A DNA stretch of 34,744 nucleotides from IMG/VR virus record IMGVR_UViG_2574180160_000007; one strand, written 5' to 3'. The notes beneath the pieces are model-generated. The model was not told where the DNA came from and ran no database searches. It worked only from the letters and a program-made list of their open reading frames with translations. The stretch is from a virus (lineage: Duplodnaviria; Heunggongvirae; Uroviricota; Caudoviricetes). The translations under genes and the position numbers were made by a program. Every line of letters begins with the position of its first letter. Positions within the stretch are counted from its first letter, which is position 1. Below, piece by piece: positions 27,871 to 28,535 of the stretch.

Positions 27871-27911
27871 GTAAAATCCCCGTCATATGGCAATCAGTAA
27901 AGGAAATAAAT

Positions 27912-28112
27912 ATGTCATCGAAAAACCGTACCCGCAGAACCACAACCCGCAATATCCGTTTCCCCAATCACATAATTGAACAGATCAACATCGCCCTTGA
28001 GCATAAAGGGTCCGGTAACTTTTCAGCGTGGGTTATTGAAGCCTGCAGGAGAAGGCTGGCAACAGATGCAACGCATCTGCGCCCGGCCAGCATGACAAAT
28101 AACGAGAAATGA
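27912..28112 (+). CDS. YlcI-like (DUF3950) small protein, probable ribbon-helix-helix fold; antisense to the late operon
   Basis: 66 aa MSSKNRTRRTTTRNIRFPNHIIEQINIALEHKGSGNFSAWVIEACRRRL...; AAGGA Shine-Dalgarno 7 nt upstream; resembles E. coli prophage YlcI as I recall it. Confidence 0.65.
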   Translation: MSSKNRTRRTTTRNIRFPNHIIEQINIALEHKGSGNFSAWVIEACRRRLATDATHLRPASMTNNEK

Positions 28113-28310
28113 ACGTTCGGTTTCTTCCACCATCGCACCGGACAGGCGACTATGAGGGGACAACGCCGCGCTCCGTTAACGCGGTAAACCCCGGTGTGTA
28201 TCGTTTTTGATTATCCCCGCACACTCGCGCAGAGGAGTCTCCCTGTCGGGCTGCGGTCTCTGTTAATGCAGGAATACGGCGACAATACCGCGCATGGATA
28301 ATAAGGTCGC

Positions 28311-28535
28311 TCAACACACTGGCTGTAATGCAGCGGATACCATGCGGCATTTAGCGGCATTCATCGTACACTCCACGGTTAGCTCTTCATTCGTGGCATT
28401 CACCTGAAAGGTCCGGGAGTGTAATTGCGTACATTTACCACTGAACGAACCTTCAACAAGAACACGACCACGCTGCAAAATACGGAACGGAATTGTTCCC
28501 TGAAAAGGTTCTACGGTTACCCGTAATTTCTTCAT
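28311..28535 (-). CDS. Hypothetical 74-aa protein translationally coupled to Rz (possibly YbcW-like)
   Basis: ATGA stop/start overlap with Rz and GGAGGAT Shine-Dalgarno inside the Rz 3' end; [63 protein letters not shown]... Confidence 0.5.

Follow-up and report, generated by a model that had tools for sequence, protein, structure and literature searches.

Whether the small genes found between the lysis and the packaging genes of a lambdoid prophage constitute an unusual arrangement with regulatory potential, or a regular one, is the question raised by positions 27,871 to 28,535 of the Caudoviricetes record IMGVR_UViG_2574180160_000007, the whole stretch of which (34,744 nucleotides, nt) was analyzed and is referred to here as the window. 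For this interval, an earlier note had described a basic protein of 66 amino acids (aa) resembling YlcI, encoded opposite to the whole late operon and thought to be ribbon-helix-helix-like (RHH-like), next to a 74-aa protein the translation of which was taken to be coupled to that of Rz. The best overall explanation, which is considered likely, is that the interval holds three separate and widely conserved modules at the lysis/packaging junction, namely the ylcI gene, the 74-aa gene and a structured RNA element of 182 nt, the latter not having been part of the earlier note. This explanation is carried by the reality of both genes, their family membership, orientation and spacing, the purifying selection observed, the distribution of the modules and the covariation of the RNA together with its strand assignment. 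Essentially, both small genes are already known, annotated and common accessory genes of Escherichia coli lambda-like prophages.

The ylcI-like gene encodes a protein which starts with MSSKNRTRR, has a calculated net charge of approximately +7 and matches Pfam PF13132 (DUF3950; E=3e-19, 69 bits at a cut-off of 25), NCBIfam NF041551 (YlcI_YnfO_N; 35.2 bits at a cut-off of 30) and phrog_949 (E=8e-33). Both curated hidden Markov model (HMM) cut-offs are exceeded, which places the protein in the YlcI/YnfO family, and PF13132 was identified in all 120 listed homologues. In a RefSeq E. coli chromosome that is 100% identical, the Prokaryotic Genome Annotation Pipeline (PGAP) called exactly the two small coding sequences (CDS), namely WP_000095741.1 ('YlcI/YnfO family protein') and WP_000736383.1 ('hypothetical protein'). 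Coordinates, strand, HMM matches and PGAP hence agree with the earlier description of a basic YlcI/DUF3950-like protein antisense to the late operon, and the distance of about 40 bp given for its start and that of the divergent HNH gene was borne out likewise, the two ATGs being 41 nt apart. Comparison of codons 1-50 with lambda and other diverged alleles revealed synonymous divergence (dS) of approximately 0.8-1.4 and nonsynonymous divergence (dN) of 0.06-0.1, i.e., a dN/dS of 0.04-0.1. As the proportion of synonymous differences (pS, 0.5-0.77) is near saturation while that of nonsynonymous differences (pN) is as low as 0.06-0.1, conservation is seen at the protein level, and ylcI is a genuine gene. 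The family alignment documents approximately 50 almost invariant N-terminal residues, MSxKNRTRRTTTRNIRFPN-x-IEQINIAL-x-KGSGNFSAWVIEACRRRL, followed by C-terminal tails of 10-30 residues which are unrelated to each other, 16 different tails having been found among the loci compared. Across E. coli, the block of DNA homology begins exactly with the ATG (27912) and extends to codon 45-52.

In the window as well as in phage lambda, in the K-12 prophage DLP12, in the Qin-like locus and in Shiga toxin (Stx) phages, a YlcI protein of 60-80 aa is encoded beside the packaging genes and against the late operon. Because the same layout recurs in all of these, an antisense gene abutting the packaging module is the normal lambdoid arrangement, and the idea that it might be unusual does not hold true; the ylcI block was identified in 4184 of 5426 complete E. 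coli genomes (77%), K-12 with its genes ylcI and ynfO included, with up to 12 copies per genome, and furthermore in 151 phage records. In lambda itself (NC_001416), positions 48109-48303 of the complementary strand encode a 64-aa open reading frame (ORF) identical to K-12 YlcI and located approximately 200 bp from the right cos end, for which NC_001416 holds no feature and which some other lambda-like records list as a hypothetical protein. Like ylcI of the window, this ORF represents the orthologous conserved block and is transcribed opposite to the late operon, in lambda leftward and away from the right cos end; unlike it, the lambda ORF resides directly beside cosQ/cosN without an intervening HNH gene, and its upstream DNA is unrelated. 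The K-12 proteins YlcI (DLP12) and YnfO (Qin) share with the protein of the window their family, size, position beside packaging genes and anti-late orientation, and are 85-87% identical to it over the N-terminal 52 residues, whereas the C-terminal tail differs (TDATHLRPASMTNNEK). The neighbourhood is different too: the window gene adjoins the HNH gene of an HK97-type module, whereas its K-12 counterparts adjoin cos-nohD/nohA, and the DUF1398 (ybcV/ydfO) or ybcW gene downstream of the latter is absent from the window. The respective orders are essD-rrrD-rzpD/rzoD-borD(-)-ybcV(-)-ybcW(+)-ylcI(-)-nohD for DLP12 and nohA(-), ynfO, ydfO for the Qin-like locus. Within the sample, two upstream contexts of ylcI were distinguished, a lambda cos-type and an HNH-type, and the DNA 5' of the gene is unrelated between them.

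Outside of this setting, Tatumella spp. were found to encode distant YlcI homologues (47-54% identity) as lone small ORFs outside prophages, approximately 400 nt 5' of a CitMHS-like transporter gene, and such lone genes without a prophage fit a generic small regulator. The lambda YlcI allele was also identified in approximately 35 assemblies of unrelated organisms (Streptomyces, Pseudomonas, Bacillales, various metagenome-assembled genomes and others), where it is located on contigs of approximately 3.5 kb or 48.5 kb. These many matches are explained by lambda itself carrying ylcI: they locate to where the right end of lambda would be expected and show the 87% match over residues 1-52 seen for the lambda allele, so that, judged from contig sizes and match positions, they look like contamination with lambda control DNA. 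For the 77-aa YnfO-type allele, a DUF1398 (YdfO/YbcV-like) gene is regularly located 43 nt downstream in the same direction, and the two possibly form a two-gene moron operon, which is absent from the window. The lambda 'orf64' of a CRISPR interference essentiality paper is a different ORF near pR' and not the YlcI homologue.

With respect to the fold of YlcI, the order of its sequence elements is suggestive: a basic N-terminal arm is followed by TRNIRFPN, with the short alternating and strand-like NIRFP, by a helix, by the turn KGSGNFS (G-x-x-N-x-S) and by a second helix. The AlphaFold model of the monomer (predicted local distance difference test score, pLDDT, of 70.6) consists of an extended, unstructured and basic N-terminus and two helices (residues 19-32 and 34-55), and the unstructured N-terminus is what would be expected for a strand which forms only in the dimer. 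Foldseek comparison of this model with the Protein Data Bank (PDB) returned only five matches, each with E>6 and all of them of RHH type (TCP domains, ParD2); the structural neighbours chiefly are the RHH antitoxins TacA1, TacA2, PrpA/ParD and CopA_SO. Among the PHROGs, a HicB-like match (E=0.006) was obtained, and profile searches of PDB sequences with the YlcI family gave nothing, even at E<=10. Small size, a basic arm, a strand-like segment and the succession of helix, G-x-x-N-x-S turn and helix are shared with Arc and Mnt of P22 (immI) and with other RHH proteins, i.e., CopG, ParD, TacA and the N-terminal domain of PutA; on the other hand, YlcI has no significant sequence or profile relationship to these proteins, and neither an operator nor a regulated partner gene (ant, a toxin) was identified for it. 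In terms of gene position, ylcI lies within the late region and divergent from its neighbour, for which mnt and arc-ant of P22 may be compared. Considering this, it is judged fairly probable that the conserved 50-residue N-terminal part forms a dimeric RHH DNA-binding domain. The RHH-like character proposed earlier thus stays plausible, if weak; the fold prediction proposed as its check yielded a two-helix model that resembles an RHH subunit without its partner, and the refuting outcome named earlier, a prediction lacking a DNA-binding domain, did not occur.

RHH fold, DNA binding, lysogenic expression and all functional roles are what we infer on top of these observations. YlcI would be the product of a standard accessory ('moron'-type) gene which possesses its own ribosome-binding site and its own promoter on the HNH-proximal side. 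The promoter must lie in the 41-nt divergent spacer and/or in the 5' coding region of the HNH gene, where a TAAAAT -10-like hexamer (27872-27877), overlapping the HNH start region, is kept in the diverged HNH-type loci L051 (a Stx2a phage) and L002. Being read against the late operon, ylcI can be made in the lysogen, when late transcription ends at tR', and once the prophage is induced, late transcription antiterminated by Q would run head-on into the gene and silence it. Genes antisense to lytic operons were described as typical lysogeny-expressed accessory loci (PMC7067206), and ExcludonFinder listed ybcW-ylcI of K-12 among the convergent excludons in at least 50% of the RNA-seq samples (PMC12288877), which indicates that K-12 ylcI is transcribed in uninduced cells. 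A likeness exists to lambda bor and other lysogeny-expressed morons, which are likewise located between Rz and cos and antisense to the late operon and for which lysogenic expression is expected as well; Bor, by contrast, is an outer-membrane lipoprotein, whereas YlcI is devoid of a signal peptide and looks DNA-binding. During the lysogeny phase, YlcI would most likely serve as a repressor or autoregulator which targets either its own promoter or sites in trans. The literature search on ylcI retrieved only gene lists and one RNA-seq note, none of which assigns a function, in agreement with such small proteins having been called uncharacterised. The suggestion that YlcI could regulate late or cargo genes found no support, as no cargo gene is located downstream of ylcI in the window and the upstream DNA is unrelated between the context classes.

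Several results weigh against the reading of YlcI as a lysogeny-phase RHH repressor. Pfam RHH models gave no match to YlcI (25 members, E<=10; solely DUF3950 and noise were returned), and hhalign of the YlcI profile against Arc yielded a probability of 2%, with the strand and helix A being aligned. The search for a sigma-70 promoter of ylcI gave nothing convincing, the sole consensus-scan match (27782-27810) not being kept in L051 and L002, and no operator-like repeat is common to the two unrelated upstream contexts, a comparison of little power given n=2 independent contexts. Moreover, lysogenic expression would be deduced from the K-12 homologue and not from this prophage. A promoter and terminator scan gave counts no better than those of shuffled sequences, and a pairing of 27821-27845 with 27934-27958, considered together with the folding of a possible ylcI 5' untranslated region, was dropped (z-score -0.8).

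The second module, the 74-aa gene, is a genuine late gene: it comprises exactly 74 codons in five alleles down to 61% amino-acid identity, with a dN/dS of 0.21-0.51, and AlphaFold2 returned a confident all-beta model of its product (mean pLDDT 90, predicted template modelling score 0.75). Its ATG (28535-28533) overlaps the Rz TGA (28534-28532), so that the coupling to Rz suggested earlier is consistent with the junction found here and also in the Stx2a phage L051; it does not represent a general property, as gaps of 23 nt (L002, L055) or of approximately 440 nt (L052) are found elsewhere. The protein matches phrog_2571 only (E=2.7e-28), its residues 1-73 aligning with the central profile positions 100-172 of 291, and its remote homologues match the same stretch of the profile, which establishes the family membership. 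The relatives in phrog_2571 are phage late-operon proteins, occurring alone or fused to other phage-only domains, whereas the 74-aa protein consists of the 73-residue core only, its E. coli/Salmonella subgroup being short and encoded directly after Rz. Close homologues were identified in E. coli and Salmonella only (49 clusters), and an exhaustive profile search retrieved 42 proteins, mostly phage proteins of 70-145 aa, some of them fused to other phage-only domains. The family pattern reads MKxLxVT...VxFxVxQxGrvLve..sGK...f.r.Y.VdAtD..L.Ve; cysteines are not conserved, a signal peptide is lacking, the broad alignment is without a conserved 7-mer, and profile searches of PDB sequences with the family returned nothing, even at E<=10. 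All loci examined have the gene on the late strand, where it comes immediately behind Rz/Rz1 or takes another place between Q or the lysis genes and the terminase, and it occurs with both lambda-type and HK97-type terminases. Loci L052-L055 contain the gene but lack ylcI, which makes the two genes independent modules. One protein (P0122) was recognized as a deletion fusion, in which the DUF1737 N-terminus of the SASA esterase gene is joined to the 74-aa ORF. The gene would be translated within the lysis cassette, here coupled to Rz, yielding a predicted cytoplasmic beta-sandwich protein of a phage-only family, which, judged from its position, most likely serves as a non-essential late or lysis-associated accessory factor.

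The third module fills the gap between the stops of the two genes. Homologous copies of this RNA element were identified in lambda (~46868-47036; aligned part 46885-46981 plus flanks, between bor and lambdap78), in DLP12 (between borD and ybcV) and in prophages of Salmonella and E. albertii, furthermore in 398 phage records, where it nearly always lacks an annotation and points in the direction of the late operon, and in 4145 of 5426 complete E. coli genomes (76%). From an alignment of 42 non-redundant copies, RNAalifold derived a consensus with a long 5' domain (28288-28282 paired with 28204-28198; 28276-28266 with 28222-28212), two small internal hairpins and a 3' hairpin (28141-28137 with 28121-28117). 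Within this consensus 98.3% of the cells are paired and 10 pairs are changed on both sides; none of 500 column shuffles reached the observed values, and in a control with the partners moved by 1-3 columns 36-58% of the cells were paired. The variable middle hairpin retains its pairing with differing stems, i.e., CCGCG/CGCGG, CUGUG/CGCAG and UCUCAU/AUGGGA. As 136 G-U cells are canonical on the late strand and not on the opposite one (98.3% versus 87.1% canonical cells), the RNA is assigned to the late strand. Folding of the spacer as a single sequence gave a z-score of approximately 0 for either strand, and the structure becomes visible only by comparison across sequences. Conservation of the element begins abruptly and no conserved promoter precedes it, so that it most likely belongs to the late transcript. 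Its usual upstream neighbour is Rz/Rz1 or the 74-aa gene, and the next gene downstream often is a convergent one (YlcI or DUF1398), the stop of which abuts the 3' hairpin. In Rfam 15, no match at E<=1 was found within 27200-28700 and no match at gathering score for 28113-28294. The known prophage small RNAs (sRNAs) AgvB/AsxR and the Pas sRNAs were considered and rejected, since they map to the pR' moron site or around esterase/holin genes and do not match. An exact-sequence search of the literature within the searchable library likewise gave no match.

A minus-strand ORF of 66 aa (28150-28350) crosses the element and matches phrog_6954, 'Rz-like spanin' (E=2.5e-14). It was rejected as a spanin gene: its amino-acid identity (61-69%) is below the nucleotide identity (84-90%) of the same stretches, which identifies the ORF as non-coding, PGAP does not call it, and the stretch shows the behaviour of a structured RNA. 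Probably, phrog_6954 collects spurious ORF calls across the RNA element; some phage records annotate a 'Rz-like spanin' or a 'hypothetical protein' at the position of this ORF. The RNA may possibly serve as a processing or stability element, or as a processed small RNA, which marks the end of the lysis cassette. As ylcI and DUF1398 genes end exactly at the 3' hairpin, their transcripts would run antisense into the RNA element, and this overlap would constitute an excludon-like switch between lysogenic moron expression and the function of the late transcript.

Over and above the three-module explanation, a variety of alternatives was weighed, two of which draw on an observation at the start of ylcI. 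Synonymous diversity at codons 7-15 (27930-27956, plus strand) is much below that of codons 16-45: all 35 alleles use the same Arg codons 8, 9 and 13 and the same Thr codons 11 and 12, Arg 16 and 46-48 being free to vary, and the mean diversity is 0.13 for codons 2-15 as compared to 0.26 for codons 16-45 (p=0.013; the 35 alleles are non-independent). The heptamer ACCCGCA occurs twice within codons 7-15, 15 nt apart. Either a DNA or RNA signal that overlaps the coding sequence or simply the requirements of translation initiation could account for this low diversity. Taken as a candidate internal binding site, the repeat and the low diversity would suit a cos- or packaging-linked guard, made by the lysogen, which silences stray transcription of HNH and terminase genes or shields cos from being cut in the chromosome, and such a guard would also account for ylcI always abutting the packaging end and being read away from the packaging genes (in lambda, DLP12, the Qin-like locus and the HK97-type modules of the window and of Stx phages). 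It is nevertheless held to be unlikely, as the homology begins exactly at the ATG and the upstream DNA is unrelated between lambda-type and HNH-type loci, so that no shared adjacent operator co-travels with the DNA-binding domain; besides, the Tatumella homologues are not beside packaging genes, and the codon-diversity signal with its non-independent alleles could result from translation initiation. Still a little less probable is that YlcI functions as a type II antitoxin-like RHH protein, be it an orphan or an unrecognised one, the variable C-terminal tail of which neutralises a toxin or a defence effector. The RHH antitoxins among its structural neighbours, ParD2 included, the HicB-like PHROGs match and the combination of a conserved DNA-binding N-terminus with a short variable C-terminus, which is the usual antitoxin layout, are in line with this idea. 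Against it, an adjacent co-transcribed toxin gene, as is characteristic of type II toxin-antitoxin systems, is missing from the window and from the 37 of 53 distinct contexts (the window being one of them) in which no co-directional gene follows ylcI; the DUF1398 partner of 14 further contexts has no known toxicity, PADLOC returned no defence-system match for YlcI or for the 74-aa protein, and many tails comprise 10-16 residues only.

That one or both ORFs are not genes, their conservation being due to DNA- or RNA-level elements of the late operon, is the least probable of the alternatives and has already been largely refuted. The existence of the conserved non-coding element, of the spurious ORF that crosses it and matches phrog_6954, and of the extra nucleotide-level constraint at ylcI codons 7-15 would fit such a scenario; the near-saturated pS at low pN of ylcI and, for the 74-aa gene, a dN/dS of 0.2-0.5 without indels or stops at 61% amino-acid identity together with its confident fold do not, and non-coding behaviour is confined to the 66-aa ORF across the element. 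A more specific proposal, namely that in the spacer lambdoid late operons have a functional structured RNA which is as yet undescribed and that, separately, YlcI acts during lysogeny as an RHH repressor linked to the packaging end of the genome, is as a joint claim regarded as possible, if rather doubtful.

The window belongs to a lambdoid prophage of E. coli, the late operon of which is encoded on the minus strand in the order holin, YdfR-like gene, lysozyme, Rz/Rz1, 74-aa gene, HNH, cos-type intergenic region, terS and terL, with packaging genes of HK97 type (HNH plus terS/terL). The coordinates of the features are compiled in the table. Three complete E. coli chromosomes match positions 27450-28600 with 100% identity, and enteropathogenic E. 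coli E2348/69 does so with 99.3%; at least 80% of this segment was found in 1086 of the 5426 complete E. coli genomes, and it also occurs in 140 phage records, chiefly of Stx-converting phages. For Rz, the longest ORF starts from GTG 29110, and the PGAP start lies 84 nt downstream, resulting in 495 nt.

Table. Features of the lysis/packaging junction and of neighbouring genes in the window (aa, amino acids; nt, nucleotides)
Feature	Position	Strand	Remarks
ylcI-like gene	27912-28112	+	66 aa, YlcI/YnfO (DUF3950); residues 1-50 conserved, C-terminal tail variable
Shine-Dalgarno-like AAGGAA	27900-27905	+	6 nt 5' of the ylcI ATG; direct reading of the sequence
Divergent spacer, HNH ATG (27870) to ylcI ATG (27912)	27871-27911		41 nt
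Conserved structured RNA element	28113-28294	- (late strand)	182 nt; between the stops of the 74-aa gene and ylcI
74-aa late-operon gene	28311-28535	-	small all-beta (beta-sandwich) protein; core domain of phrog_2571
Rz/74-aa junction	28532-28544	-	GGAGGA 28539-28544 inside the Rz end, 3 nt before the ATG; ATGA 28535-28532
Rz i-spanin gene	28532-29110	-	Pfam Phage_lysis E=7e-51; phrog_13 E=2e-77
Rz1 o-spanin ORF, embedded in Rz	28621-28806		lipobox
Lysozyme	29669-30202	-	
HNH endonuclease gene	27505-27870	-	HK97-type packaging module; Pfam HNH E=3.7e-8; phrog_589 E=4e-44; PGAP; followed by the cos region and terS/terL
terS	26651-27214	-	
terL	24993-26654	-	

Further observations were made in the surroundings of the interval. 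Within the gap of 290 nt between HNH and terS, GTTAACAT is repeated at least six times at 27285-27413; the copies have both orientations, include perfect palindromes and probably represent binding sites of the terminase small subunit in the cos region. Between lysozyme and Rz (29126-29600, minus strand), PGAP called three tiny hypothetical CDS of 28-51 aa. Rfam matches above the gathering score were obtained for the STnc100 sRNA (33465-33654, minus strand, 132 bits), for which a relationship to the prophage PasD sRNAs is described, for IS009 (3459-3657, minus strand, 225 bits) and for a tRNA (34354-34427, minus strand).

As first written, the finding is of little weight, since it concerns two annotated and very common genes in an arrangement that is the lambdoid norm. 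What adds to it is that the lambda reference annotation lacks the strongly conserved 64-aa YlcI gene beside cos; both the best-studied phage and the majority of E. coli strains thus carry the uncharacterised and probably DNA-binding YlcI, of which up to 12 copies are reached in enterohaemorrhagic E. coli. With the 74-aa protein, a phage-only beta-sandwich domain is defined which is confidently folded and linked by position to lysis cassettes. The spacer, finally, is a covarying late-transcript RNA structure outside of Rfam, which would explain the repeated spurious annotation of 'spanin' or 'hypothetical' ORFs at this place and which, if functional, would constitute a new cis element or small RNA within a textbook operon.

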